Notes: generated from the letters alone by a model not told the origin. 32,000 nt of DNA from Erysipelotrichaceae bacterium MTC7 (GCA_001695645.1 LVZN01000056.1:60001-92000), one strand, 5' to 3'; positions 962 to 32,000 are shown, numbered from the stretch's first letter. Program-made: numbers and translations.

Positions 962-1038
962 TGGGGCGACCGAAGGGATTTGAACCCTCGCATGACGGGA
1001 CCACAACCCGCTGTGTTAACCGCTTCACCACGACCGCC
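962..1038 (-). tRNA. tRNA-His (anticodon GTG) with encoded G-1 and CCA
   Basis: Minus-strand read: G-GCGGTCG-TG-GTGAAGCGGTTAACAC-A-GCGGG-TTGTGGT-CCCGT-CATGC-GAGGG-TTCAAAT-CCCTT-CGGTCGC-C-CCA. It folds as a full cloverleaf with a 7-nt anticodon loop carrying GTG. The extra 5' G pairs with C73, which is the His hallmark. Confidence 0.92.
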
Positions 1039-19732: not shown

Positions 19733-19992
19733 CAAAAAAAACCTTCATCCAAAGGACGAAAGTTTACCTTACGTGGTTCCACCTTTTTTTATTGGTACTT
19801 CGCAGCACCAACCTCTTCGAGTACTATCATACTCTAGCAAGATAACGGTTGCAGGGACACCGATGAAGACTACTTACGTTCACCTTCATAACTCCAAGAC
19901 GTGTTCACAGTTTTGCCAATCTTCTTTTTCACCAACCAAGAAGTCTCTACGTTTATTAAAACCGTTACTATTTCTTATCATCGTTTATTGTT
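19733..19992 (-). promoter_or_regulatory. T-box riboswitch leader, His specifier (CAC)
   Basis: Read on the minus strand. Stem I has AGAGA, the helix CTTCTT...AAGAAG and the distal GGTTGGTGAAA. The specifier loop is GAA-CAC-G, with CAC at 19903..19901. The T-box is AAAGGTGGAACCACG (19783..19772). The terminator is CTTTCGTCC-TTT-GGATGAAGG (19762..19742) followed by T8, then an AGGAGG SD. Confidence 0.88.
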
Positions 19993-20060: not shown

Positions 20061-20090
20061 ATAAAATAGAAAACCAGATTTCTCTGGTTT
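20061..20090 (-). terminator. rho-independent terminator closing the PCAT locus
   Basis: On the minus strand: AAACCAGA-GAAA-TCTGGTTT (8-bp stem, 20090..20071), then TCTATTTTAT. It begins 8 nt after the stop of the 111-aa gene. Confidence 0.6.
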
Positions 20091-20097
20091 CTTTGAA

Positions 20098-20433
20098 CTA
20101 AAGATAACTAGCCCAACGTGGGGTTCTGCCCCATGGCATGGTATGGAAATATACGCGAATTCCATTTCCATTAGCTCCATTCTTGAAGACTTTTGCCGCT
20201 CCTCCAAGAACGGTCGCAATGGCTGTTGCATAAGGTGCAGCTGCAGCACAGAAGTAAGCAATGGCACTAGAAACAGTTGATCCAACACTCAACCACCAAG
20301 AGATGTTTTTACAATCCGTTTTTGTCATTGTATACGTCCATTGTGCATGGCCAACATTTGTCCAATACCCTTGTCCATAACGTTCTTGTTGTAAGGATAA
20401 AGCAGCATAATGTTTAGGTAAAATAAGTTCCAT
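20098..20433 (-). CDS. 111-aa cationic Trp/Tyr-rich protein with Ala/Gly/Ser-rich hydrophobic core; candidate exported cargo (bacteriocin-like), family not recognised
   Basis: Strong SD AAAGGAGGA lies before the ATG. It is the last gene of the PCAT locus. It has 6 Trp, 8 Tyr, 9 K/R and 3 D/E. Residues 46-83 (WWLSVGSTVSSAIAYFCAAAAPYATAIATVLGGAAKVF) form small-xxx-small ladders. Confidence 0.75.
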   Translation of the reverse strand: MELILPKHYAALSLQQERYGQGYWTNVGHAQWTYTMTKTDCKNISWWLSVGSTVSSAIAYFCAAAAPYATAIATVLGGAAKVFKNGANGNGIRVYFHTMPWGRTPRWASYL

Positions 20434-20452
20434 GGTTCCTCCTTTCTAAGCG

Positions 20453-20475
20453 AGGTGCTCACCTTATATTCACCT
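20453..20475. promoter_or_regulatory. clustered AGGTG/CACCT motifs upstream of the 111-aa gene (possible operator)
   Basis: The plus strand reads AGGTG-ct-CACCT-tatat-tCACCT. That is an inverted repeat (20453..20464) plus a direct repeat of TCACCT with an 11-bp period (20459..20464 and 20470..20475). It lies 20-40 nt upstream of the start codon. Confidence 0.3.
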
Positions 20476-20478
20476 GAT

Positions 20479-20505
20479 AAAAAAAGAATCCTAAGATTCT
20501 TTTTT
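20479..20505 (-). terminator. AT-rich terminator-like hairpin between the HlyD gene and the 111-aa gene
   Basis: On the minus strand: AAGAATC-TTAG-GATTCTT, a 7-bp stem extendable through flanking A/T runs, followed by T5+. It starts right at the HlyD stop codon. Confidence 0.45.
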
Positions 20506-21724
20506 AGTAAGTAGTTTCCTTCAGTTGCAAAAGTGTAAGTAGATAATCCACATAGGTTTCTTCTTCATAGATGATTTTACAAGTCACGGGCATCCCTTTT
20601 TTTAATTGTTGAAAACTCTTGGTATCCTTAACTTTTGGATAATTCATCATCACCAGCATACGATACACAAGTTGCCTACCTTCAGCACTATCTTGAGATA
20701 AGCTTCCTTGATCAATTGAGGTTACCATACCAGGAATACTTGGATATACATTGGAGTTCAAGCCATTCAATTCAATCAAGACTGGTTGACCAACTTTGAC
20801 TTTGGCAATTTCATTGGCATCAATATACGTTTCGACAACCCATTTTTTTGGTTCGTTTTCACTTATTTGGGCAATGACTCCATTGCTTTGAATGCTAAGT
20901 CCTTCATACATTGGGTTTAGATAATGCACATACCCTTCATTGCTAGCACGTATGACATAGGTCGATGCACTAGTTGATGCTAAAAGTGTATTGCTTTCCA
21001 GTTCTTGTTTTTGCGTTTCTACTTGCGTTCTTTGCGTCCCCAATTCACTAACAAATTGATAAAATAGTTTCTCGCTTTGCGGTACGTTTTGCAGTTCTTG
21101 TTGCAACTGTTTGATTTCTTCTTGAATATTTTCTAAACTTGCTTGTTTTGCTTCTTGTTCCAAGGAATCTGTAGTTTTCGACAGGGCTTGTTGTTCCTTG
21201 TGAAGCTTTTCTTTTTTCAGTGCTAAATTTTCCTGAACACGTTGCTTGGTTACTTGCTCTTCAGCTAACTGCAATAAGTAGTATTCCACTTTCCCATAAT
21301 ATTCTTGTTGTAGTCCTTTGTTTTGTAAGTGGTTTGTTTTTTCACGTAACGACTGTTCATACAAATCCATAATGGATAATTTCTCTTTGGTCTGTGCGTA
21401 CTGGTCATGTAATGCTTCTACTTCGCTTCCATTTTTTCCATCACTTAATACCAATAAGATTTCACCCGTCTTGATATAATCACCCTCATTTGCTTCAATG
21501 GAAACAACCACACCTTGTGCATTACTGCTCACATAATGATTCTCTTTAGAAACAATACTTCCTTGACCGTAAACCACATAGGGTTTTGTAAAACGTGTAA
21601 TCGCGATTCCAAAACCAATCATAAATAGTAATGTGATTAGGAGGGTATATATGGCGTATTTGGGTGGCTTACGATCAAAGAAAAATCGTGTATAGGTTAA
21701 ATCATGAATGTTGAATAATTTCAC
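20504..21724 (-). CDS. HlyD-family bacteriocin secretion accessory protein (LcnD/ComB type membrane fusion protein)
   Basis: 406 aa. It has an N-terminal TM helix (YAIYTLLITLLFMIGFGIAI), a barrel-sandwich segment (G.I..G..LL), a long Q/E-rich coiled coil and a C-terminal beta domain. The GTG start is preceded by GAAGGGG. Confidence 0.9.
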   Translation of the reverse strand: MKLFNIHDLTYTRFFFDRKPPKYAIYTLLITLLFMIGFGIAITRFTKPYVVYGQGSIVSKENHYVSSNAQGVVVSIEANEGDYIKTGEILLVLSDGKNGSEVEALHDQYAQTKEKLSIMDLYEQSLREKTNHLQNKGLQQEYYGKVEYYLLQLAEEQVTKQRVQENLALKKEKLHKEQQALSKTTDSLEQEAKQASLENIQEEIKQLQQELQNVPQSEKLFYQFVSELGTQRTQVETQKQELESNTLLASTSASTYVIRASNEGYVHYLNPMYEGLSIQSNGVIAQISENEPKKWVVETYIDANEIAKVKVGQPVLIELNGLNSNVYPSIPGMVTSIDQGSLSQDSAEGRQLVYRMLVMMNYPKVKDTKSFQQLKKGMPVTCKIIYEEETYVDYLLTLLQLKETTY

Positions 21725-22184
21725 GACTTGCCCCTTCTAATGGAACATACATAACTGCGTGTATACACGTTTCTGAGTTTTCATAAAATAAAGTATACAA
21801 TTCGCCTGTACTGACATACTCATGCTCATACAAGTACACACTGAGTTTTTGGTGCGATAGATCAAAAAACCTTGGATGATCACAAAACTCGACACGTAAA
21901 CAGTTCTCTAGTGAAATTGAGGCTATTGTTTCAAACCCAGGTGTATCGTGTTCGCTTTGCACCATCAGGATGTAATCCAGTAATAAATCACCTTGTCCAG
22001 TAAACGTGCTACCACAGAGTTTATGTATCAACGGTCCTGTAGTTTGAACCTTTTGTAGCTGGATGCGATTGATAAATTGTTGTAAATAACGTTCAAATTC
22101 GTATACTTGAATTTGTTTGATGTTTTCTATTGCAAGCTGGGTAAACACGATGGATTCATGTTCAGTAATTTTTATTTGTTTCAT
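21702..22184 (-). CDS. GyrI/SbmC-like (small-molecule-binding fold) protein, 160 aa
   Basis: I chose the ATG at 22184, right after AAAAGGAGGA and 10 nt past the PCAT stop. By eye it aligns with E. coli SbmC along the whole length (IKITEHESIVF..., FERYLQQF..., LLLDYILMV, GFETIASI, YLYEHEY, ELYTLFYEN, HAVMYVPLE). The fold call has not been verified by search. Confidence 0.6.
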   Translation of the reverse strand: MKQIKITEHESIVFTQLAIENIKQIQVYEFERYLQQFINRIQLQKVQTTGPLIHKLCGSTFTGQGDLLLDYILMVQSEHDTPGFETIASISLENCLRVEFCDHPRFFDLSHQKLSVYLYEHEYVSTGELYTLFYENSETCIHAVMYVPLEGASREIIQHS

Positions 22185-22194
22185 AATCCTCCTT

Positions 22195-24357
22195 TTATTG
22201 TCTTTCAAGCATTCGATAGTAATATCCTTTGCGAAGATACAATTCATCATGATTTCCTGACTCCAATACACGTCCACTGGTTAATACATGAATCACATCA
22301 CACTTACGAACCGTGGAAAGTCGATGCGCAATCACAATACGTGTATAACCGGCAAGTTGATTGAAGATGACATCACTGATCAATGCTTCGCTTTGGCTAT
22401 CTAAGTTACTTGTTACTTCATCAAAGACGTAGATATCTGGTTTCTTCAATAATGCACGTGCAATCCCAATGCGTTGTTTTTGTCCACCAGATATATTGCT
22501 TGCACCTTCTTGTAAGATACTTAAATAGCGATGTTCAAGCCCATCAATCCATTCATGAATTCCGACTTGCTTACATACACGAACAATTTCTTCAAAACTT
22601 ACATCAGGGTTCGCAAGTTTTAGATTGTCCAAAATGGTACCAGAAAATAGTTGAACTTCTTGTGGAACATAGGCAATCTTGTTTCGCAGCGTTTGTAAGT
22701 TTAGATCTTTAATGTTGTAATTACCAATGGTAATATGCCCATCTCCTACTTCATAGTAGCGCAGCAACAAGCGAACCAATGTCGTTTTCCCACCACCACT
22801 ATCACCAACCAAACCAACGACTTCTCCCGGTTTGAAACTAAGATTTAAACTTTGAAATAACGGTTTGTGTTTTTGATAGCCAAATTGTACCTGGGTAAAA
22901 TGAATCATTTTATCCAATGTAAAAGTATCAATACTTGCTTCTTGGTGTTCCTCACTTTCTAATTCCATAAGTTCACGTAGTCGTGAAATAGATATGCTAA
23001 CTTCTTGAAAACGCAACTGTAAGGACACGAGACTTTGAATCGGTTCCATAAAATATTGAGACAACGTTTGAAAAACTAGCAAGTCACCAATGCTCATTTT
23101 TTGTTGCATAATAAAGTACGCTCCGACCCCTAAAAACAAATAGTTGCACAAACCATTAATGGAATTTGCTAGAAAGGATTGCAAGATGGATAGTTTTCCC
23201 TCCTGATAACCAATCGTCAATGTTTTAATAAAATTTTGTTCAATTTGCATCAAACGAAGTTGTTCATTGTTTTGCGACTTGACCGTATCCATGTTTTGCA
23301 AGGTTTCCACCAATGTTGCATTCATTTGTGAATTGGTTTCCATTTGTTTCACGTTGATTGCTTTGTATGGCTTTTTAAAAACATAGATTAAGACAATGTT
23401 AATACAAACAATAACTAACAAGATTAGAAACAACGTTTGATTCAAGCGGAATAAAATCAGTGATGAACACAAAGCTAACACGATGTCCATCAACAAAGAA
23501 ATAGCAACATTAGAAAAAACTTCTTTAATTGTGATGGCATCTTGAAAACGTGTCAAAATATCTCCTACTTTGCGATTTTTAAAGTACCCGTAAGGTAGAT
23601 ACAAAACGTGTTTAAAATAACCTAGTAACAATGGAATATCAATTTTTCTAGAGAAAAATAACAAGACATGTTCACGTGCTGCACTCAAAAGATTTTGAAG
23701 CAACAAGATAAAACAGAAAAATACCAAATACATGATGAGTAATTGACCTCGGTTGTATGGAATAATTTCATCCATCACAATTTTTGAAAACAGAGAAGAT
23801 AATAACCCCAATACAGTCAAGAGTATCGACATGACTATGACTTGTATGACCAGTTTCTTATGTGGCAAAATCAGTGATGAAAACAAGGTTAGCAACGAAT
23901 GACTTTTCATGGCATCTCTTGTCACTTCTTGATTTTTCACCAACACAATCACAATTCCACCAAACATTGTCTCGAGTTCCATTTTACTCACTTTGCAAAC
24001 ACCTTTGAGTGGATCAGCTAGTATGTATTGATCATTCTTACAAATCTTATAAAGCAAAACATAATGCCACTGTCCACTTTCATTACTTACTTGTAAGATG
24101 ATTGGAAAATTCATCTTTTCATGTAAGTCATTGATACTTGTTCGCACTGCCTGTGCTAAATATCCATGTCCCTGTAAGGTTTCCACCATACCTTCGATGT
24201 TGGTTCCACGCAATTGAACACCAACTTCTTCACGTAAGGTTTCATAACTATACGCGACACCATCGTGTTGAAATACACTTGCGATAACTGCAACACCACA
24301 ATCGTAATCATCCCTTTGATAAACACAAGTGTATCGTTTTTTACGAATCAGGTTCAT
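22195..24357 (-). CDS. peptidase-containing ABC transporter (PCAT): C39 peptidase + 6-TM + ABC ATPase
   Basis: 720 aa. The C39 residues are Q14 and C20 (VYQRDDYDCGVAVIA), His (GQWHYVLL) and Asp (LADP). The ATPase has Walker A GDSGGGKTT, signature ISGGQKQR, Walker B IYVFDE and H-loop IAHRLST. Confidence 0.95.
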   Translation of the reverse strand: MNLIRKKRYTCVYQRDDYDCGVAVIASVFQHDGVAYSYETLREEVGVQLRGTNIEGMVETLQGHGYLAQAVRTSINDLHEKMNFPIILQVSNESGQWHYVLLYKICKNDQYILADPLKGVCKVSKMELETMFGGIVIVLVKNQEVTRDAMKSHSLLTLFSSLILPHKKLVIQVIVMSILLTVLGLLSSLFSKIVMDEIIPYNRGQLLIMYLVFFCFILLLQNLLSAAREHVLLFFSRKIDIPLLLGYFKHVLYLPYGYFKNRKVGDILTRFQDAITIKEVFSNVAISLLMDIVLALCSSLILFRLNQTLFLILLVIVCINIVLIYVFKKPYKAINVKQMETNSQMNATLVETLQNMDTVKSQNNEQLRLMQIEQNFIKTLTIGYQEGKLSILQSFLANSINGLCNYLFLGVGAYFIMQQKMSIGDLLVFQTLSQYFMEPIQSLVSLQLRFQEVSISISRLRELMELESEEHQEASIDTFTLDKMIHFTQVQFGYQKHKPLFQSLNLSFKPGEVVGLVGDSGGGKTTLVRLLLRYYEVGDGHITIGNYNIKDLNLQTLRNKIAYVPQEVQLFSGTILDNLKLANPDVSFEEIVRVCKQVGIHEWIDGLEHRYLSILQEGASNISGGQKQRIGIARALLKKPDIYVFDEVTSNLDSQSEALISDVIFNQLAGYTRIVIAHRLSTVRKCDVIHVLTSGRVLESGNHDELYLRKGYYYRMLERQ

Positions 24358-24514
24358 CGTATTTTCGTATAAGCATCAAGGAAATAAACATGATAAGCGT
24401 AAAAAGAAAAATAAGATTTGTGTATTGTAAAGGAATGATTTGAAAGGTCACTAACAATCCTGTTCCAATTGCCAGCCAACTGCTCATTTGATAAACGATA
24501 TGTATGTATTTCAT
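24341..24514 (-). CDS. 57-aa two-TM membrane protein (candidate immunity or accessory protein)
   Basis: MKYIHIVYQMSSWLAIGTGLLVTFQIIPLQYTNLIFLFTLIMFISLMLIRKYDEPDS. The ATG at 24514 is 6 nt after GGAGG. The 3' end overlaps the PCAT start by 17 nt. The longer ORF-track version runs through a terminator. Confidence 0.6.
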   Translation of the reverse strand: MKYIHIVYQMSSWLAIGTGLLVTFQIIPLQYTNLIFLFTLIMFISLMLIRKYDEPDS

Positions 24515-24562: not shown

Positions 24563-24594
24563 AAAAAAAAGAAGCCACTCTACTGAGTAGCTTC
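24563..24594 (-). terminator. rho-independent terminator after the GntR gene
   Basis: 10-bp stem with one mismatch (24571..24580 and 24585..24594) and a 4-nt loop. On the minus strand it is followed by T8. Confidence 0.7.
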
Positions 24595-24599
24595 CATGT

Positions 24600-25268
24600 T
24601 TATGTAACAATTTCAATCACTTTTTCAACTGGGTTATTGTAGACCTTCATAAAAATCACTGGTTCTCCACTGATGCGATTCACAATGTTTTCAACCAAAA
24701 TAAGTGGTTCATTCACGCGCACGTTTAACATATGTGCATACTGTGGCGGAACCATCACCGGTTTAAACCGCGAAGTTAAACTTCCTTCACTGTAAAGTTT
24801 GTTGAAATCTTTCCAGTTTGGTAGATTTCTAAGTTCTTCATCACTTAAATTCAAGCGACGAATATAGATTTCTTCAATACACTGTGGTCTTCCTTCTTTA
24901 CTAACAAGTCGAATCATTCGTACCACAGGTTCATCATCATTGATCCGCAAAGCGGTTTGGACATCATCTCCACTACTCGCTTTCACATCAAAGTAAATAA
25001 TCTTATAGGTAAGTTGTTCAATATCATCAGTTGCTGTTAACGTATTCTTCTTGTGAAGGGTACTATCTGCGACGAAAGTTCCACGATTACTTTCACGATA
25101 AAGATATCCCTCATCCACCAACGCTTCTACTGCTTTTCGCACAGTCATTCGACTTGCATCAAACCGTTTTGTAAGGTCTCTTTCACTTGGTATTGGTGAA
25201 TTGGGTGGTAGATCTTTAATCATTTCAAGCATTTCTTGTTGGATTTTCTTATATACTGGAACATCCAT
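24600..25268 (-). CDS. GntR-family (HutC subfamily, UTRA domain) transcriptional regulator
   Basis: The winged HTH is PSERDLTKRFDASRMTVRKAVEALVDEGYL. It is followed by a ~140-aa UTRA-like effector domain. Confidence 0.9.
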   Translation of the reverse strand: MDVPVYKKIQQEMLEMIKDLPPNSPIPSERDLTKRFDASRMTVRKAVEALVDEGYLYRESNRGTFVADSTLHKKNTLTATDDIEQLTYKIIYFDVKASSGDDVQTALRINDDEPVVRMIRLVSKEGRPQCIEEIYIRRLNLSDEELRNLPNWKDFNKLYSEGSLTSRFKPVMVPPQYAHMLNVRVNEPLILVENIVNRISGEPVIFMKVYNNPVEKVIEIVT

Positions 25269-25297
25269 GCCTGTCCCCCCCTTTCATTGAAAAATTG

Positions 25298-26386
25298 CTA
25301 TTCCATGAAACCGAATGGTCTCCAAGGTTCAATGTAATCCAATAACATCATTTCATTGTCTGGAATGCGCCCGATGACGTTTTTACGTCCATCGTTTGGC
25401 ATATCCTTTAATACAATGTGAAGTTCGCCTTTGTAGCGTGAATAGTTGTCATTTACCACAATCACATCACCACGACGTAAGTCGCGTGTGTTTTCTGGTG
25501 GAACACTTTCACTTGCATAAGTCACACGTGGGAACGTTGAACGTGCCATGTATTCACTCATATCTCCACGAACATAGTGTTCGTGTTCAAAGATTACTTT
25601 TCTCTCCGTTGGATGCAATTCTTTTTCATAATCAATTTTAAACGTTAATAAACCCGGATTGATTTTAGCACATGTTTCTAACTCTTCACGTGTTGCAAAT
25701 TGGTTTCCAATGATCACATCATCAATCATACCTGTTGCAACCAAATGACGCATTTGTACATCAATTGGTAAATCACGGTGAAGTTCTAATGTACATAGAC
25801 CTTCATTTACCGGCCATGGACCAAAGCTATCTTCTGCTTGACTAGAAACAAAAGCTGCGATTTTAAGTCCGTGTTTCTTTATCATATTATTACATAAATC
25901 AAAGTGTTTTTCACTTAAACCTGTATATCTTTGTGGATAAAAATTGTGACAAGTAATCATTTTATCCTTGTCTGGATAATGCGAGATAATATTGTCAATG
26001 TAACCATTTCCAAAACTTGCATTAATTTCAATTTTTAGACCTTCTTTATTATAGGTCATCAAGCTTTCTTTTTGCCCACCAAATCCTTCATCTAAACGAA
26101 TTCCATCAGCGTGCATATCTTTGAAAAATGATAAATCATCATAACTCACACCCAATTTGTCAAAGACAAATGGAGCTACATCTAAGATCACTTCCATATG
26201 TAAGGTATGTGCATAATCAATCATTTCTCTAAATTCTTCTAAGATTTCTTGTTTTGTTCTTCCTTCAACACTTAGTAAACAAGTGAAGATTCTTGTAAAC
26301 CCACACTCTGCTGCTTCTTTAATGTAGGCTTTATTTTTCTCTAATGGTGCATGTTCTGGATAAACCGATATTCCTAATCTTGCCAT
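25298..26386 (-). CDS. DUF871 / MupG-like 6-phospho-glycosidase
   Basis: 362 aa. LGISVYPEH, FTCLL, DV.P, GIRLD.GF and HNFYP..YTGL fit the DUF871 pattern. The family includes S. aureus MupG, a 6-phospho-N-acetylmuramidase. Confidence 0.8.
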   Translation of the reverse strand: MARLGISVYPEHAPLEKNKAYIKEAAECGFTRIFTCLLSVEGRTKQEILEEFREMIDYAHTLHMEVILDVAPFVFDKLGVSYDDLSFFKDMHADGIRLDEGFGGQKESLMTYNKEGLKIEINASFGNGYIDNIISHYPDKDKMITCHNFYPQRYTGLSEKHFDLCNNMIKKHGLKIAAFVSSQAEDSFGPWPVNEGLCTLELHRDLPIDVQMRHLVATGMIDDVIIGNQFATREELETCAKINPGLLTFKIDYEKELHPTERKVIFEHEHYVRGDMSEYMARSTFPRVTYASESVPPENTRDLRRGDVIVVNDNYSRYKGELHIVLKDMPNDGRKNVIGRIPDNEMMLLDYIEPWRPFGFME

Positions 26387-26426
26387 TTGTTTTCCCTTTC
26401 TCTTAAAAAAAGAATAGTGTTAACCA

Positions 26427-26873
26427 CTATTCTTGACTATCAACTAAGGCTTGAAGTTGGTTTAACATAAGATTCATCTTCTTTTTACTTGAACGTGCGT
26501 ATAACTTACTCATTAAACTAAAGTTCAAGTTTTTACTGGTTTTGTCTGAAACAAAATCTTCTGAATATGTAATGCCAAAAAGATCGTCATCTTCATCTTC
26601 TAGATGATAAGAAACCGTATTGACTCCTTGTGCACTATAAAACTTTGCAACGTACACTTCATTTGGTACAAGCTGGGCAAGTTCTACTTTCACGCGTCCT
26701 GCTTTCCCCATCTTTGTTTGCAGTTTTTTATAGTATGTAAAACCCGGATGCAAATCTGTTTCTGTGTATACCTTGCCATCTTCACTATTTGCATTGATAT
26801 CTGCTAAAACAGACTCAATAAAAATATGATAGCAAGTTTCTTTTTTTCCCCGTAGTAATTTAGTTATTTCCAT
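26427..26873 (-). CDS. DUF3284-like protein
   Basis: 148 aa. GFTYYKKL....G.VKV.......Y.A.F.S..G.NTVSY......G..ITY.E and a basic C-terminal helix fit DUF3284 as I recall it. PTS-operon context is typical for the family. Confidence 0.7.
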   Translation of the reverse strand: MEITKLLRGKKETCYHIFIESVLADINANSEDGKVYTETDLHPGFTYYKKLQTKMGKAGRVKVELAQLVPNEVYVAKFYSAQGVNTVSYHLEDEDDDLFGITYSEDFVSDKTSKNLNFSLMSKLYARSSKKKMNLMLNQLQALVDSQE

Positions 26874-27031
26874 TATTTGTCCTTCTTTCTATTACGAAAC
26901 AATTGAAAGGCACCAAATGCTGTTACCGTCAATCCGCTAACTAACATTGGAATACTATTCCCCATCAATGGATAAAAACAAATAAGTAAGCAACCAAACC
27001 CCATGAGTACTAATGCATTTTCTTTCTTCAT
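26873..27031 (-). CDS. 52-aa membrane protein (unlisted small ORF)
   Basis: MKKENALVLMGFGCLLICFYPLMGNSIPMLVSGLTVTAFGAFQLFRNRKKDK. AGGTGG SD lies 5 nt upstream. The stop overlaps the DUF3284 start (TAATG). It has two hydrophobic spans. Confidence 0.5.
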   Translation of the reverse strand: MKKENALVLMGFGCLLICFYPLMGNSIPMLVSGLTVTAFGAFQLFRNRKKDK

Positions 27032-27060
27032 GTTTACCACCTAACTTCTTCCATTATATA

Positions 27061-27276
27061 CTATGCAACGGTAACTGAAAAGTATAAAACTGCTCCAATC
27101 TCTGTAGCTTTAATTGCAGCTTTCGCTGTTGCAATTGCATCATCCATGTCATCTGTATCTACTGAGAAGAATAAGTTAATACCTTCTTTTTTTTCAAATT
27201 TATAGTTGTATTTATCAATTCCTTCAACAATTTCTGTAACATAGTCTTGTTTCATCGGACACGAAATTTTAATCAT
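27061..27276 (-). CDS. 71-aa hypothetical cytosolic protein
   Basis: MIKISCPMKQDYVTEIVEGIDKYNYKFEKKEGINLFFSVDTDDMDDAIATAKAAIKATEIGAVLYFSVTVA. I chose the ATG at 27276, 6 nt after AAGGAG. I do not recognise the family. Confidence 0.6.
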   Translation of the reverse strand: MIKISCPMKQDYVTEIVEGIDKYNYKFEKKEGINLFFSVDTDDMDDAIATAKAAIKATEIGAVLYFSVTVA

Positions 27277-27286
27277 AAAAAACTCC

Positions 27287-27598
27287 TTATTTATCAAATC
27301 TTTTGTAAACATCGATGAACTCATTTGCTAAGATCTTGAATGCTTCTGCACTCATCAGTTGATCTTCAGCATGAAGCAATAACAAAGTAACTTTGTCTAG
27401 TTCACCACTTGCTTCTTGTTGAATCAATTTTGCATGTGCATGGTGTCCCTCTGTAAAGAATTTTTCCCCTTCACTAATTGATTCCTGTGCTTTTTCATAA
27501 TCTCCAGCTTTGGCGTGTTGAATCGCTTCAATGAAGCAACTTCTTGCGCCTCCAACATTAGAGATAATTTGAAAACAAACTAATTCTAAACCTTCCAT
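27287..27598 (-). CDS. PTS lactose/cellobiose-family EIIA component
   Basis: 103 aa. II...G.ARS...EA, the phospho-His region FTEGHHAHAKLIQ, and LLLLHAEDQLM match EIIA. Confidence 0.9.
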   Translation of the reverse strand: MEGLELVCFQIISNVGGARSCFIEAIQHAKAGDYEKAQESISEGEKFFTEGHHAHAKLIQQEASGELDKVTLLLLHAEDQLMSAEAFKILANEFIDVYKRFDK

Positions 27599-27623
27599 GT
27601 CTAACCTCCTAAAATTAGTGCAA

Positions 27624-27645
27624 AAGGAGGATGGTTATCCTCCTT
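27624..27645 (-). other. strong intercistronic stem-loop between the IIC and IIA genes
   Basis: AAGGAGGAT-loop4-ATCCTCCTT, a 9-bp perfect stem. No adjacent U-tract follows on the minus strand (TTGCACTAATTTT), so it is more likely a processing or stability element than a full terminator. Confidence 0.4.
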
Positions 27646-27658
27646 ATGTTGCAACCTA

Positions 27659-29071
27659 CTATTCTGTTTCAGTATCTGCTAGGTCAACTTTGTTACCGAT
27701 CATAACAAAGACTCCCCAAAGGACAACCGCGATTGCCAGGTTGATTGCTGCTAAGATACCAGCTGCGATACTACCACCAGTTGCAAGTACTGCATAAACT
27801 ACTGGAGGCATAATCCAAGGTACTGGTACGTATACAGGTGGAACGATTCCAGCTGCTGTTGCTGCATAAGCAATAATTGTTAAGACAATTGGTACTAATA
27901 ACCAAGGAATAAAGTAAATTGGGTTAAGTACAATTGGCATACCAAACACAACAGGTTCGTTAATGTTGAAAACTCCCATTGGTGCTGATAATGCAGCGAT
28001 TGTTTTCGATTCTTGTTTTTTAGAGAAGATGAAGATTGCAATAATTAATGCGATCGTACATCCAGCTCCACCCATCCAAACGTAAGCGTCAAATGATCCA
28101 CGAGTCCACATGTATTTCATTGTTTCCCCAGCTGCATAAGCTACGTTGTTTTCATTTGTTGCTGTTAAGTAAACACCATCTAATACTGGTGCAAGTACGT
28201 TAGTACCGTGGATTCCAAAGAACCAGAACAATTGAACTGCGATTACGACAATAATAACTGCTCCAAATCCTTGAGATAATGCTAAGAATGGTGCTTGAAC
28301 GTATTCAAAGATTAAGTCTCCAATTGAAGATCCAGTCCATAAGCTTACTAGGTAAGCTGCAATACCAGCTACATAAATAGCGATTAAACCAGGAATGATT
28401 GATGCGAATGCTTTTGATACAGCAGGTGGCACTGAGTCAGGTAATTTAATTGTAATTTTAGCTAACATTAATTTACAGTAGATAACTCCTGTAATAAGTC
28501 CCACGATCAATGCTGTAAATAATCCACCAGCGTTTAGGTATGCCCAGTTAAGGTTTCCCCAAGCTCCGATTCCAGAAATAACAGTTCCACCAGAAGCACT
28601 ATCACCAAGTGTTAATCCGATTGTTTTAAATGCTTCTAATGCATCAGCTCCTAAAACTGTTTCCCCTAAGTCGATTGCTGCAAATGCAGATTGTGGTGTA
28701 ACGGTAATAAATGCTGCAAAAGCAACAACCCCACCAGCTAATGCTGGAACTTTGTATACTTTCGCAAGTTGGTAACCAAGAGCAAATACGAATACCATTG
28801 ATAAGATTGCTAATGTACCCCACCATACGTTTCCGTTTACTCCAATAATTCCAGACACGAATGTGCTGCTTGTGAAACTGTTTCCTGCTCCCCACCATTC
28901 GTTAGGTAGGTCACGGAAAAATACGTTTAACAATGTTGCAAATGCTCCTGCCATGGTAATTGGCATGATTGCGATGAACGCGTCACGAATTGCAACTAAA
29001 TGTTTTTGCGAACCAATTTTCGCTGCTACAGGAACAAAGTGTTGTTCCATCCAGTTTGTAAATCCTTTCAT
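27659..29071 (-). CDS. PTS lactose/cellobiose-family EIIC permease
   Basis: 470 aa and polytopic. The N-terminus ME.HF.PVAAKIG.QKHL.AIRDAF is characteristic of CelB/LicC-type EIIC. Confidence 0.95.
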   Translation of the reverse strand: MKGFTNWMEQHFVPVAAKIGSQKHLVAIRDAFIAIMPITMAGAFATLLNVFFRDLPNEWWGAGNSFTSSTFVSGIIGVNGNVWWGTLAILSMVFVFALGYQLAKVYKVPALAGGVVAFAAFITVTPQSAFAAIDLGETVLGADALEAFKTIGLTLGDSASGGTVISGIGAWGNLNWAYLNAGGLFTALIVGLITGVIYCKLMLAKITIKLPDSVPPAVSKAFASIIPGLIAIYVAGIAAYLVSLWTGSSIGDLIFEYVQAPFLALSQGFGAVIIVVIAVQLFWFFGIHGTNVLAPVLDGVYLTATNENNVAYAAGETMKYMWTRGSFDAYVWMGGAGCTIALIIAIFIFSKKQESKTIAALSAPMGVFNINEPVVFGMPIVLNPIYFIPWLLVPIVLTIIAYAATAAGIVPPVYVPVPWIMPPVVYAVLATGGSIAAGILAAINLAIAVVLWGVFVMIGNKVDLADTETE

Positions 29072-29166
29072 GTTCTCTCCTTTTTAATGAATCAAATACT
29101 ATGTAATAAATCAATCTTCGTTTTTTTCTTCACTTTATCAAGAATGATTTTATTACCAAATCTAAA

Positions 29167-29469
29167 CTACTTAAGTAAAGCTAAAGCGCTTTCAAGGACT
29201 TTTTTACCGTCCATTCTTCCATACGCTGCCATATCGATAACCATTACTGGTTTCTCGTTATTTACGCGTTCTTTCATTTTTGCTTCTAAGTAACGAACTT
29301 GAGGTCCTAAACAGATCACATCCGCTTTCTTAATTGCGTCTTCACTGTCAGCATCCCCTACAGCCCAAATGTTTGCTTCCACATTCATTTCGGTTGCTGC
29401 TTCTTGCATCTTTTTCACAAGAGCACTCGTTGACATTCCTGCCGTACAAACTAGCAAAATATTAGTCAT
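29167..29469 (-). CDS. PTS lactose/cellobiose-family EIIB component
   Basis: MTNILLVCTAGMSTSALVKKM carries the active-site Cys in LLVCxxGMSTS. I chose the ATG at 29469 after AAAGGGGA. The ORF-track start at 29712 runs through the promoter and terminator. Confidence 0.9.
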   Translation of the reverse strand: MTNILLVCTAGMSTSALVKKMQEAATEMNVEANIWAVGDADSEDAIKKADVICLGPQVRYLEAKMKERVNNEKPVMVIDMAAYGRMDGKKVLESALALLK

Positions 29470-29484
29470 ATGCTTCCCCTTTCT

Positions 29485-29496
29485 TGGTATATACCA
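29485..29496. promoter_or_regulatory. 12-bp perfect palindrome TGGTATATACCA (candidate GntR/HutC operator)
   Basis: It is a perfect dyad between the -10 element and the SD of the PTS operon. A half-site copy, TGGTATAg, overlaps the -10. Confidence 0.45.
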
Positions 29497-29509
29497 CCTC
29501 TTTACACTT

Positions 29510-29537
29510 ACTATACCATACAATTCCCATATTTCAA
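29510..29537 (-). promoter_or_regulatory. sigma-A type promoter of the PTS operon
   Basis: On the minus strand: TTGAAA (29537..29532), a 16-nt spacer, then an extended -10 TGgTATAGT (29518..29510). Confidence 0.55.
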
Positions 29538-29650
29538 GTATAGTTCGCATTTTTTTTACATATTCATTGTAATGCATAGGTGATTCCCTTGTCGCCTCAG
29601 ACGCATAAAAAATATATGTCGTATATCTTTTATGATATATAAAAATAAAA

Positions 29651-29668
29651 AACCCTTTATTTAAGGGC
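29651..29668 (-). terminator. weak terminator after the DUF885 gene
   Basis: CCCTT-loop5-AAGGG, a 5-6 bp stem containing the stop codon. On the minus strand it is followed by TTTTTTATTTTT. Confidence 0.4.
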
Positions 29669-31366
29669 TTTTTCAACATAAGATTCAACAATTGAAAATG
29701 GTGCAGGACCAATATTTAAAATTGCTTCATGGAATTTTTTAGCATCAACATCATCATAAGCTTCTGCTAAATCGATAAATTTCTGTCCACCAACGTAATA
29801 TTCAGCAAAGATTCCTGGTGTAACTGCTAATGTTGTATAGATTTCATTTGTATCACCAAACATCGATAGATACTGTTGCAAATCCGCTTGTGTTTGTCCA
29901 TCGTAATTGATCATCAAATCAATCATCAACAACAACGCGTAATTTAAACGCTCCATACTATCGTTCGCTTTAGCAACTTCCGGTTTTAAGGCATACTTTG
30001 TTGTATAGTATTGCACATAGTTTGCCCAACCTTCTGTATAGCCACTGTAATCCATAAGTGAACGGATTAACGGTTGTTCTTGTTCTTTGTAATATTGCTT
30101 TTGGTACATATGTCCTGGATAACCTTCATGGGCGATGGTCGAATAGTCATCTTCCGTAAAGTCGCCATTTAGAATCATCTTTTCTTTTGTATGTTCTTCA
30201 TCAATCGGACTTGTAAAATACGCAGCTGCCGTATTCCCTAAAATCTTACGCATCGACTCTGGCACGATTTCCATTTCGTAATCTAAATCGCGAACCGCTG
30301 GAAAATCATCTTTTGTATCTTTGCTTAACTCCTCCAGTACTTTATTTGGATCGGTTTGTTTTGTATACACACCTGAACTTTCCATTTCCAAAGAATTGCT
30401 ATCCTGCATTTCATTCAAGTAACGTGTATACATATCTTGCAAGTATGTTCGATACGTTTCAATATCCATACCTGTTGTTCCTTCAATTTGAATTGCGTAT
30501 AATTCGCGTCCATTTGCGTATTGAGACATGCCTTCATCAACCGCTTTTACTTGAAGGTTTGCCAAACCTGTTGCCAAGTTGGTATATGCAGTTTGTAAGG
30601 CACCATCAACTAGTGCACTATTTTGCTCAATATATGCTTCTATATCAGCTTTTGATAGGTTCTTAACATTTGCAATTCCCTTTTTGAATGAATCTTTCAG
30701 GAAACTATGATCTCCACTTACATAGGTATCAACAACTTCTTTGGTTTTGGCAATGTGCATTGGTTGCATACCAAATCCTTTATCTTGACGTTCTTGTTCA
30801 AATGCGACCAATGATTGAAAATACGCATCTGTTGTTTCTAACAAATGGAGATAACTTTTGATGTCTTGTTCATCTCTAAATGTGTAGAAATAGAAATTAA
30901 ACGGAATATTCCCCGGAGCTCCGCGATTGTAATCCAAATCATTGTTCATCAAGTAATACAAATCTTCAACTGGAATGCTATCGTCTGGTTGATAAGCATC
31001 AAGTAATACATCGTATGTTAGTTGTTGTTTTTCACTTAACGAGTCACGATCAAAAGCTTTAATCTTGGCATAGATTTCATTTCCTTGGTTGATACTCTCT
31101 TCGAAGTCTTCATAACTTACGAGTTTTTGTTCGTAAAGAGTCTCTTTACTGTAACCAAATGCCTCCTTATCAGCAAGAAAGTAATTTAAACTGTAATCTG
31201 TTTCATCGAATACTTCACCAATTAATGAATCAACGTAGTTTGTAAACTCTTTGTTTTCATTCTTATCTGATAGAGCTGTTGCTGGTTTGCTTTCTTTGTT
31301 GCTTGAACAAGCAACAAGACCCATTGCTAAGACACACACCAATAATACTTTAACTAATTTTTTCAT
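29657..31366 (-). CDS. DUF885-family lipoprotein (metallopeptidase-like HExxxH-type motif)
   Basis: MKKLVKVLLVCVLAMGLVAC-SS gives a signal peptide plus a lipobox. HEGYPGHMYQ is the conserved DUF885 motif. Confidence 0.85.
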   Translation of the reverse strand: MKKLVKVLLVCVLAMGLVACSSNKESKPATALSDKNENKEFTNYVDSLIGEVFDETDYSLNYFLADKEAFGYSKETLYEQKLVSYEDFEESINQGNEIYAKIKAFDRDSLSEKQQLTYDVLLDAYQPDDSIPVEDLYYLMNNDLDYNRGAPGNIPFNFYFYTFRDEQDIKSYLHLLETTDAYFQSLVAFEQERQDKGFGMQPMHIAKTKEVVDTYVSGDHSFLKDSFKKGIANVKNLSKADIEAYIEQNSALVDGALQTAYTNLATGLANLQVKAVDEGMSQYANGRELYAIQIEGTTGMDIETYRTYLQDMYTRYLNEMQDSNSLEMESSGVYTKQTDPNKVLEELSKDTKDDFPAVRDLDYEMEIVPESMRKILGNTAAAYFTSPIDEEHTKEKMILNGDFTEDDYSTIAHEGYPGHMYQKQYYKEQEQPLIRSLMDYSGYTEGWANYVQYYTTKYALKPEVAKANDSMERLNYALLLMIDLMINYDGQTQADLQQYLSMFGDTNEIYTTLAVTPGIFAEYYVGGQKFIDLAEAYDDVDAKKFHEAILNIGPAPFSIVESYVEKALK

Positions 31367-31378
31367 GTTTTTTCCCTC

Positions 31379-32000
31379 TTATAAATGTTTTAAGAAATTA
31401 CCACTTACACTCAATCCTTCAGAGAAGATAATAAATGCATGGCGATCTATTTTTTTGATTTGGTGTCTTAAGAAATGCACTTCATCTTTACTAACCGCAG
31501 TCATTAAGACAAACGTTTCTTTTTCAGTATAACCACCAATTCCTTTCCAATAAGTTACTCCACGATGCAAATCGTTGGTGATAAACTCAACAATTTCTTT
31601 GTTTCTGGTAAATATCATCGCTGTCATGTTGATGTTTTGGTAATGTACTTTATCAATTACAAACGTGGAAACGACAAGATAAATCATTGAGTAAATCGCT
31701 GTTTCAATATTGAATAACATCGCACATACGATAAACAAACACGTATTCACAATCAATGATAAACGCCCCACACTAAAGTTAGGATACTTTTGTGACAAAT
31801 ACACCCCAACAATATCAAGCCCACCACTGGATCCGTGTGCACGTAACATAATCCCGGTTCCACAACCGGCGATAAAACCACCAGCTAAACATGATGCTAA
31901 CGTATCTTGGACAACCGGGATGCTTGGTACCGGAATCAAAGATAAAAAGGTTGTTTGTACAGCAATACAAAGCAGTGTCAAAGAAAAGAAACGCTTGGAC
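31379..32000 (-). CDS. YitT-family membrane protein with C-terminal DUF2179 domain, N-terminus outside window
   Basis: GSSGGLDIVG, several TM spans, then the C-terminal DUF2179-like segment (TAMIFTRN...RGVTYWKGIGGYT...VLMTAVSKDEV). The reading frame stays open upstream of the ORF-track TTG at 31981 to the window edge. Confidence 0.85.
   Translation of the reverse strand, partial: SKRFFSLTLLCIAVQTTFLSLIPVPSIPVVQDTLASCLAGGFIAGCGTGIMLRAHGSSGGLDIVGVYLSQKYPNFSVGRLSLIVNTCLFIVCAMLFNIETAIYSMIYLVVSTFVIDKVHYQNINMTAMIFTRNKEIVEFITNDLHRGVTYWKGIGGYTEKETFVLMTAVSKDEVHFLRHQIKKIDRHAFIIFSEGLSVSGNFLKHL

Follow-up and report, generated by a model that had tools for sequence, protein, structure and literature searches.

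The export locus within a 32,000-nucleotide stretch of Erysipelotrichaceae bacterium MTC7 (GCA_001695645.1 LVZN01000056.1:60001-92000; the whole stretch is hereafter the window) is probably an rtg-type double-glycine (GG) peptide secretion system, with a membrane-active cargo, an accessory protein of GyrI-like fold that we call X, and an immunity protein of 57 aa. Five co-directional minus-strand open reading frames (ORFs) were confirmed at 20098-24514, between the terminator of a GntR gene and the T-box of a his operon. They encode the 57-aa protein, with two transmembrane (TM) segments, a peptidase-containing ATP-binding cassette transporter (PCAT), X (160 aa), a HlyD adaptor, and a 111-aa protein that is the best cargo candidate. 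An earlier reading of this DNA from its sequence alone (the original prediction) had proposed a self-contained PCAT/HlyD export locus with a bacteriocin-like role; the first part is upheld and the second is plausible. It had also taken the system to be undescribed, which does not hold, as both the architecture and the leader class match the pneumococcal rtg locus (PMC7018657) and the module occurs commonly in Clostridium and on plasmids of Bacillus thuringiensis. This kind of system is thus already known, the rtg-type PCAT locus having been described in 2020. What is new is a member in the Erysipelotrichaceae, a cargo core from a very rare family, and a natural leader that does not end in GG.

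The ORFs, overlaps, gaps, terminators, and weak hairpin are as originally described, with terminator coordinates recomputed (Table 1). A 10-nt gap separates the PCAT stop codon from X, the X and HlyD genes overlap by 23 nt and are translationally coupled, and the intergenic gaps are 70 nt and 85 nt. A protein 100% identical to X is annotated in Erysipelotrichaceae bacterium MTC7. The same five genes lie between GntR and hisZ in Breznakia genomes; a PCAT scan of the genome collection returned only Breznakia blatticola and two irrelevant ABC ATPases. Between the window and the Breznakia locus (L001), the ratio of nonsynonymous to synonymous substitution rates (dN/dS) is 0.04-0.19 for all five genes, with dS saturated. 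This purifying selection indicates that all five are real, functional coding genes.

A conserved PCAT-X-HlyD module

We inspected 13 loci (the window, L001, L016, L019-L027, and the L002/L003 group), whose origins include the window, Breznakia, B. thuringiensis pSCG364, C. estertheticum pCF007-D, C. isatidis, and six metagenome/Logan contigs. X lies between the PCAT and HlyD genes in 13/13, and in most its reading frame overlaps those of its neighbors; this middle place in the module is constant for the GyrI-fold gene in Clostridia, Bacilli, and Erysipelotrichia. The co-occurrence of the small genes with PCAT/HlyD, which the original prediction had put forward as a check, is found for the X family; one homolog of the 111-aa protein, in locus L008, has no linked exporter. 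In the literature searched we found neither X as a fixed middle gene across Bacillota nor the kinship of X with DUF5085 discussed below.

The adaptor gene is followed by at least one cargo gene of 110-135 aa with an rtg-type leader in 12 of the 13 loci. The exception is L027 (773-2921), in which X is longer (188 aa), a 57-aa TM protein is encoded directly after HlyD, and there is no GG-leader cargo within 3 kb downstream. Cargo cores vary widely within and between loci, and some of those in Clostridium resemble RtgT and RtgW when judged by eye. LytTR regulators are present in the Clostridium relatives.

Locus L008 (3600-4950; metagenome ERZ27245258) has the GntR...hisZ synteny, but carries just two genes there, one for a 54-aa two-TM protein and one for a cargo homolog with 55% identity and a leader ending in GEG; PCAT, X, and HlyD are absent together from the site. 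Either the transporter block was deleted from this site, or it was inserted in the lineage of the window.

In Streptococcus pneumoniae, the rtg locus encodes the PCAT RtgA and the accessory protein RtgB, and the peptides RtgC, RtgG, RtgT, and RtgW are exported by RtgAB (Wang et al., mBio 2020, PMC7018657). These peptides begin MEL[IV]LPNNYVxLEQEEMMYLDGG (PMC7595303 supplement). The segment from -22 to -18, with its Pro(-18), routes them for secretion by RtgAB, while the leader positions -15/-12/-7/-4 (Y/L/M/L) are neither necessary nor sufficient (PMC7018657). In the published gene table, the gene annotated as a "GyrI-like hypothetical protein", rtgX, has a frequency of 21.1%, the sum of the values for intact (18.6) and disrupted (2.5) rtgB (PMC7018657, Table 2). 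These frequencies suggest that the two genes are inherited together, and that RtgX is thus also present in "RtgAB" strains.

The cargo candidate and its leader

The original prediction had found no canonical GG-leader ORF to match the transporter's peptidase. No other canonical or rtg-type GG-leader ORF occurs in the 32-kb window, and the 111-aa protein is itself not leaderless. Its alignments suggest that it is the "missing" cargo, derived from a canonical GG-leader family with the N-terminal MELxLPxxY retained and the GG site degenerate. Regular-expression matches to GG peptides elsewhere in the window were implausible and had no Shine-Dalgarno sequence.

Relatives of the 111-aa protein are scarce. 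An exhaustive phmmer search of 1.84 billion protein representatives returned only 4 related clusters at 50% identity, and word-seeded searches with this protein and with X found only the Breznakia orthologs. The cargo has no tblastn match among plasmids and none in Pfam, NCBIfam, or PHROGs, and a PDB sequence search gave only noise. A match to an 887-aa repeat protein (P0006) was disregarded as a short, low-complexity "GTWTYT" repeat.

Three distant relatives (P0005, P0007, and P0008) have canonical double-glycine leaders of the pattern LPxxYxxIxxEEMxYIDGG followed by YWT. The P0005 leader, MGLMLSLPKRYDEIEEEEMQYIDGG (of which LPKRYDEIEEEEMQYIDGG immediately precedes the predicted cleavage site), continues as YWTHVGHAEW and aligns residue for residue with the window leader, MELILPKHYAALSLQQERYGQG, which continues as YWTNVGHAQW. 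P0005 also has a sub-threshold match to the Pfam family Bacteriocin_IIc. In the canonical relatives the leader reads L-x-L-P(-18)-x-x-Y(-15)-V-x-I(-12)-x-x-E-E-M(-7)-x-Y-I(-4)-D-G-G, and the Pro at -18 and Tyr at -15 are present in 12/12 canonical sequences compared, including pneumococcal RtgG, RtgC, RtgT, and RtgW (MELILPNNYVDLEQEEMMYLDGG). The window leader begins MELILPKHY and that of RtgG MELILPNNY, with MELILP common to both; the window Pro falls at -17 relative to G22, as the leader is one residue shorter.

The leader and core have evolved very differently. Between the window and Breznakia, leader residues 1-22 are 55% identical with a dN/dS of 0.30, versus 93% and 0.015 for the 89-residue core. 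Identical leader residues number 8 among residues 1-9 and 4 among residues 10-22, which makes the N-terminal segment the best-kept part of the leader, and MELxLPKxY is retained in all three of the closest lineages (window, Breznakia, and L008). The core is cationic (7 Lys + Arg versus 1 Asp + Glu) and contains 6 Trp. Its residues 48-83 form a hydrophobic stretch of about 35 residues with Ala, Gly, and Ser in small-xxx-small spacing, including the chains G51-S55-A59-A63 and A65-A69-A73-G77.

The 70-nt spacer between the HlyD and cargo genes (20434-20503, minus strand) is 84% identical to that in Breznakia (L001 9926-10000), despite saturation of the synonymous sites in the genes on either side (pS about 0.7). 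It holds an AT-rich hairpin with a T-run and a conserved block, GAGCACCTYGCTTAGAAAGGAGGAAC, and is not conserved in L008 or L006. The hairpin may be a partial terminator or an attenuator, and the spacer may be an internal promoter for the cargo gene.

The transporter and adaptor

The transporter has Pfam matches to Peptidase_C39 (PF03412, 8e-25), ABC_membrane (PF00664, 1.3e-40), and ABC_tran (PF00005, 7e-29), matches TIGR01193 at 1.5e-148, and can be aligned over the whole protein to PCAT1 (4ry2; E 2.9e-145). All catalytic residues of the C39 peptidase are present, as originally described, with the Asp at position 115 rather than 114; the tetrad Q14, C20, H98, and D115 aligns to PCAT1 and is invariant in a six-sequence alignment of related PCATs. 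The exporter transmembrane domain is followed by a nucleotide-binding domain in which the Walker A, signature, Walker B, and H-loop motifs (GDSGGGKTT, ISGGQKQR, IYVFDE, and IAHRLS) were all seen in the alignment to 4ry2. Overall, the window PCAT is 38-42% identical to those of X-bearing Clostridium and Bacillus loci.

The C39 domain (PCAT residues 1-150; window 23905-24357, minus strand) is the fastest-evolving part of the transporter in the window clade. Identity to Breznakia is 64% in C39 versus 79% in the remaining PCAT, and to the Clostridium and Bacillus loci 28-32% versus 40-45%. In loci with canonical leaders, by contrast, the conservation of C39 equals or exceeds that of the remaining PCAT, and clearly exceeds it in comparisons between Bacillus and Clostridium (70-73% versus 64-66%). 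In the window clade Gly follows the catalytic Cys, where the others have Ala. The tetrad is nevertheless retained, and the C39 dN/dS between the window and Breznakia is 0.155. Such a pattern would fit a C39 domain that has co-evolved with a changed cleavage site, or one in which the constraint on leader docking has been relaxed.

The adaptor matches HlyD_3 (4.6e-12), as well as TIGR01843 (1.1e-29) and TIGR01000 (7.7e-17), both below their curated cut-offs, and its orthologs match Beta-barrel_AprE and BSH_LcnD. The locus therefore pairs a PCAT with a ComB/BlpB/LcnD-like HlyD protein, as expected of an rtg-type system.

X, a GyrI-fold component of the module

X from the window has no match of its own in Pfam, NCBIfam, or PHROGs, and PDB sequence searches with X gave only noise; a 50-sequence X profile found nothing among PDB sequences. 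Weak tblastn matches (19-23% identity) were found on plasmids of B. thuringiensis and C. estertheticum, each an ORF of about 160 aa located between PCAT and HlyD genes. A profile search then recovered at least 307 proteins, mostly from Clostridium and of 165 aa, some labeled at their source as "effector-binding domain-containing".

An alignment of 2 sequences gave an AlphaFold2 model with a predicted local distance difference test score (pLDDT) of 33, and 50 homologs were needed for a confident model (pLDDT 91.6; predicted template modeling score, pTM, 0.84). In this model a beta-alpha-beta-beta unit occurs twice (strands, E, and helices, H: E5-25, H27-43, E52-61, E67-77, E85-102, H104-120, E129-136, E141-149). 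Foldseek returned 25 matches at E<=1e-3, and ranks 1-49 are almost all GyrI-like, led by CTR107 (E 1.2e-5, TMq 0.64), SAV2435, STM3175, CtaZ, EcmrR, Rob, SbmC (1jyh, TMq 0.64), and BmrR; the matches that are not GyrI-like are SOUL/HEBP2 heme-binding proteins and Listeria hydrolases. The original assignment of the 160-aa protein as GyrI-like is thus confirmed at the level of the predicted fold, a duplicated SHS2 module, without support from Pfam or NCBIfam.

As these best structural matches are small-molecule binders, X might be an ordinary GyrI-like binder or self-resistance protein of the kind of SbmC, CtaZ, or the albicidin binder STM3175, present in the operon by chance; the lack of a family-level sequence assignment for the window X is compatible with this. 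We consider this very improbable, given that X occupies a fixed position between PCAT and HlyD, mostly with overlapping frames, in 13/13 loci from Erysipelotrichia, Clostridia, and Bacilli, is lost together with both in L008, and occurs in loci that encode no small-molecule biosynthetic genes.

The only Pfam family matched by relatives of X is DUF5085 (PF16895), which is hit by 23 of the 50 members at E<=0.01. Scores are 17-26 bits (best E 2.4e-5), and none reaches the gathering threshold of 30 bits, so the X family appears to be a distant, sub-threshold relative of DUF5085. Members of this family neutralize type VII secretion system (T7SS) toxins. The GyrI-like DUF5085 proteins ExiA and ExiB are cytoplasmic and bind the glycine zipper of the toxin EsxX in the producer, while the membrane proteins ExiC and ExiD protect from outside (PMC12744356). 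Similarly, the DUF5085 protein TipE neutralizes TelE (PMC10434224).

The small membrane protein

The 57-aa protein has two hydrophobic segments, is 68% identical to its Breznakia ortholog, and has a dN/dS of 0.19. The original prediction recognized no immunity gene in the locus, which we find doubtful. Two-TM proteins of 54-68 aa are encoded beside cargo genes in L008, L010, L006, L021, and L022, and in a wider set cargo genes repeatedly neighbor genes for small proteins of 54-100 aa that have two or three TM segments. These positional analogs share no significant sequence similarity with the 57-aa protein (BLASTP against the L008 54-aa protein, E 0.23), which itself matched nothing in Pfam, NCBIfam, and PHROGs scans. 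It is therefore position and topology that make the 57-aa protein a candidate membrane immunity protein.

Two of the loci inspected for small partners contain tandem cargo sets. L010 (824-1818) encodes two tandem 117-aa cargo paralogs with leader segments identical from YVEIEQ to DGG, and after both this set and the one in L021 (8728-10173) comes a two-TM ORF of 59-68 aa, as is typical of toxin-immunity cassettes.

Interpretation and proposed mechanism

Several observations weigh against an rtg-type assignment with the 111-aa protein as exported toxin. The leader ends in Q21-G22 rather than Gly-Gly (or Gly-Ala or Gly-Ser). The residue at -2 is Q or E in the three closest lineages, giving GQG, AQG, or GEG; Breznakia leaders end in QG and P0004 in EG, so that G/A-Q/E-G in the closest lineages stands against D-G-G in all others. 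The hydrophobic residues at -7 and -4 are also lost (the equivalents are Q/E and G/Y), with Y9 and L12 kept, and the GG motif is held to be necessary for PCAT binding and cleavage (PMC7018657). In L008, the cargo gene is retained without PCAT, X, or HlyD at the site, which indicates that the cargo can persist without a linked exporter. The region upstream of the 57-aa gene showed neither a regulator nor a clear sigma-70 promoter, the window X has no DUF5085 match even at E<=10, a single X is shared by several unrelated cargo cores in Clostridium loci, and no killing activity has been demonstrated for any rtg member.

The leader changes raise the alternative that the 111-aa protein has ceased to be a substrate of the PCAT, being for example a membrane protein of the producer, and that PCAT-X-HlyD exports another GG peptide encoded outside the window. 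The faster evolution of the leader than of the core, the unlinked cargo in L008, and the PCAT-X-HlyD set without an adjacent GG cargo in L027 are all in keeping with this. Nonetheless we regard it as unlikely, because the part of the leader on which RtgAB relies, MELxLPKxY, is precisely what all three lineages have kept, the cargo gene comes right after that of the adaptor and points the same way, an arrangement shared with 11 other loci, the window contains no other GG-type ORF, and the transporter has an intact C39 tetrad and is under purifying selection.

A second alternative, to which we give slightly less weight still, is that the cargo is exported but acts as a signaling or colonization factor, in which case the small TM protein would not provide immunity. 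The rtg locus does give a colonization fitness advantage, with no killing demonstrated, and the GG peptides VP1 and BriC are not bacteriocins. On the other hand, the locus encodes no receptor kinase or regulator, the small-xxx-small helices of the 89-aa core resemble those of membrane-active toxins, X is related to the toxin-neutralizing DUF5085 proteins, and the cores are polymorphic, multicopy, and accompanied by small TM proteins, in the manner of toxin-immunity cassettes. A class II bacteriocin is plausible given the small-xxx-small core, the recurrent small TM partner, and the lack of modification enzymes.

The sharing of one X among several unrelated cores, together with its loss along with the transporter in L008, argues against X as a core-specific immunity protein, and we have down-weighted that role. 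The same two observations slightly favor the binding of X to a shared cargo feature, either the leader or a generic small-xxx-small helix, over toxin-specific immunity of the TipE kind.

In the rtg-type system that we favor, the 111-aa precursor would be recognized mainly through the N-terminal motif MELxLPxxY of its 22-residue leader, and the RtgA-like PCAT and RtgB-like adaptor would export the hydrophobic, cationic, Trp-rich core of 89 aa. This core would then probably act outside the cell on the membranes of competitors, as a class II bacteriocin or microcin-like toxin. X may be a cytoplasmic cargo-binding accessory protein that reads the leader motif common to these cargos and passes the cargo on to the PCAT; by analogy with ExiAB and TipE, which act on T7SS glycine-zipper toxins, it may instead shield the hydrophobic small-xxx-small segment before export. 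The 57-aa two-TM protein would serve as an immunity factor at the membrane.

These ideas can be extended, tentatively and with more doubt than confidence, to rtg-type PCATs in general as three-component exporters. X would be a cytoplasmic receptor or holdase that reads the -22 to -18 segment or shields the zipper, and that brings the cargo to the PCAT. In this Erysipelotrichaceae clade, the GG site and the amphipathic leader helix could then have been free to decay, with C39 cleaving at a non-canonical Q/E-Gly site or the cargo being exported uncleaved.

PCATs are the main export route for bacteriocins and pheromones in Gram-positive bacteria, and the way in which they choose substrates is at stake here. 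A natural non-GG leader beside a PCAT with all its catalytic residues lends itself to testing how strictly the GG rule applies. Nor is the GyrI-like gene a chance member of rtg-type loci, and the apparent kinship of X with DUF5085 offers a testable role for RtgX and a candidate reader of the distal leader motif. As a member of a very rare family, the cargo core could be a new antibacterial protein.

Locus boundaries and genomic neighborhood

Table 1. Positions of the predicted features of the export locus in the window.
Feature	Position	Strand	Basis and remarks
Two-TM protein, 57 aa	24341-24514	-	ORF; 17-nt overlap with PCAT start
RtgA-like PCAT, 720 aa	22195-24357	-	Pfam, TIGR01193, PCAT1 alignment
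X, GyrI-fold protein, 160 aa	21702-22184	-	AlphaFold2 and Foldseek; sits between PCAT and HlyD
RtgB/ComB/LcnD-type HlyD adaptor, 406 aa	20504-21724	-	HlyD_3; N-terminal TM anchor
Cargo candidate, 111 aa	20098-20433	-	ORF; leader alignment to canonical relatives
Putative cargo leader, residues 1-22, MELILPKHYAALSLQQERYGQG	20368-20433	-	Alignment to canonical relatives and RtgC/G/T/W
Putative cargo core, residues 23-111 and stop codon, 89 aa	20098-20367	-	93% identity to Breznakia
Intrinsic terminator of upstream GntR gene (upstream boundary)	24570-24595	-	11-bp stem, T8 run, dG -16.6 kcal/mol, z -4.65
Terminator after cargo gene (downstream boundary)	20070-20091	-	dG -11, z -3.25; his-operon promoter and T-box next
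AT-rich hairpin and T-run, HlyD-cargo spacer	20478-20505	-	dG -11 kcal/mol, z -3.0

Downstream of the locus, a T-box leader (RF00230, 124 bits; 19749-19990, minus strand) precedes hisZ and the his operon, with a perfect TTGACA-17-TATAAT promoter ahead of it (20027-19999, minus strand) and its own terminator (19765-19739). The block upstream (24600-31400, minus strand) encodes a GntR/UTRA regulator, MupG (6-phospho-N-acetylmuramidase family), DUF3284, phosphotransferase system (PTS) components IIA, IIC, and IIB, and DUF885; the block has a syntenic counterpart in Breznakia and seems to have no connection with the export locus. A tRNA gene lies at 965-1037 (minus strand; Rfam RF00005, 55.6 bits).

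No Rgg/SHP (RtgR/RtgS) genes were found at the locus, whose neighbors are the GntR/MupG/PTS operon and the his operon, and the original prediction was correct that the window has no quorum-sensing regulator. Likewise, none of the locus ORFs encodes a modification enzyme. A phage or defense origin was dropped, as there are no PHROG matches and the chromosomal context is the syntenic GntR-hisZ interval.

Comparison with known systems

The classical exporters LcnC/LcnD, ComA/ComB, and BlpA/BlpB, and Clostridium thermocellum PCAT1, resemble the window system in the C39-transmembrane-nucleotide-binding domain order, the intact tetrad, the HlyD-family adaptor, and the expected removal of a leader. 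The window locus differs from them in having a GyrI-fold protein between transporter and adaptor, a cargo about twice the usual size, a degenerate GG site, and recognition that is probably achieved through a distal N-terminal leader motif.

Class IIa microcins, such as microcin V exported via CvaAB/TolC, are also unmodified, hydrophobic, Gly/Ala-rich toxins, of about 88-90 aa when mature. They combine a PCAT and membrane fusion protein with a small membrane immunity protein, in Gram-negative bacteria and with an outer-membrane component. We know of no sequence similarity between these systems and the window locus, nor of a microcin system with a GyrI-like component.

The DUF5085 immunity proteins ExiA, ExiB, and TipE share with X a soluble duplicated-SHS2 fold of about 150-165 aa (modeled for X) and a gene position next to that of a membrane-active toxin that is exported and has many small-xxx-small motifs, although toxicity is a prediction for the window cargo. 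The EsxX system likewise has a separate membrane protein for outside-in immunity, to which the two-TM protein of the window locus may be likened. X differs in accompanying a PCAT/HlyD exporter rather than a T7SS, in occurring once per transporter rather than once per toxin, and in being co-lost with the transporter in L008.

Relative to the pneumococcal rtg locus, the window has GQG in place of DGG, has lost the EEMxYL segment, and encodes a single cargo gene and no Rgg/SHP regulator, and its cargo core belongs to an unrelated, very rare family. What the two share is a PCAT with a ComB/BlpB-like adaptor, small membrane proteins alongside, and a listed GyrI-like gene, RtgX being likened to X on the basis of its gene-table description and the fold of X. 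Their cargos are also alike, with precursors of about 100-126 aa in rtg, a leader beginning MEL[IV]LPxxY, a Pro near -18, a Tyr at -15, and hydrophobic, Gly/Ala-rich cores. These similarities place the system of a poorly studied organism in the rtg class.

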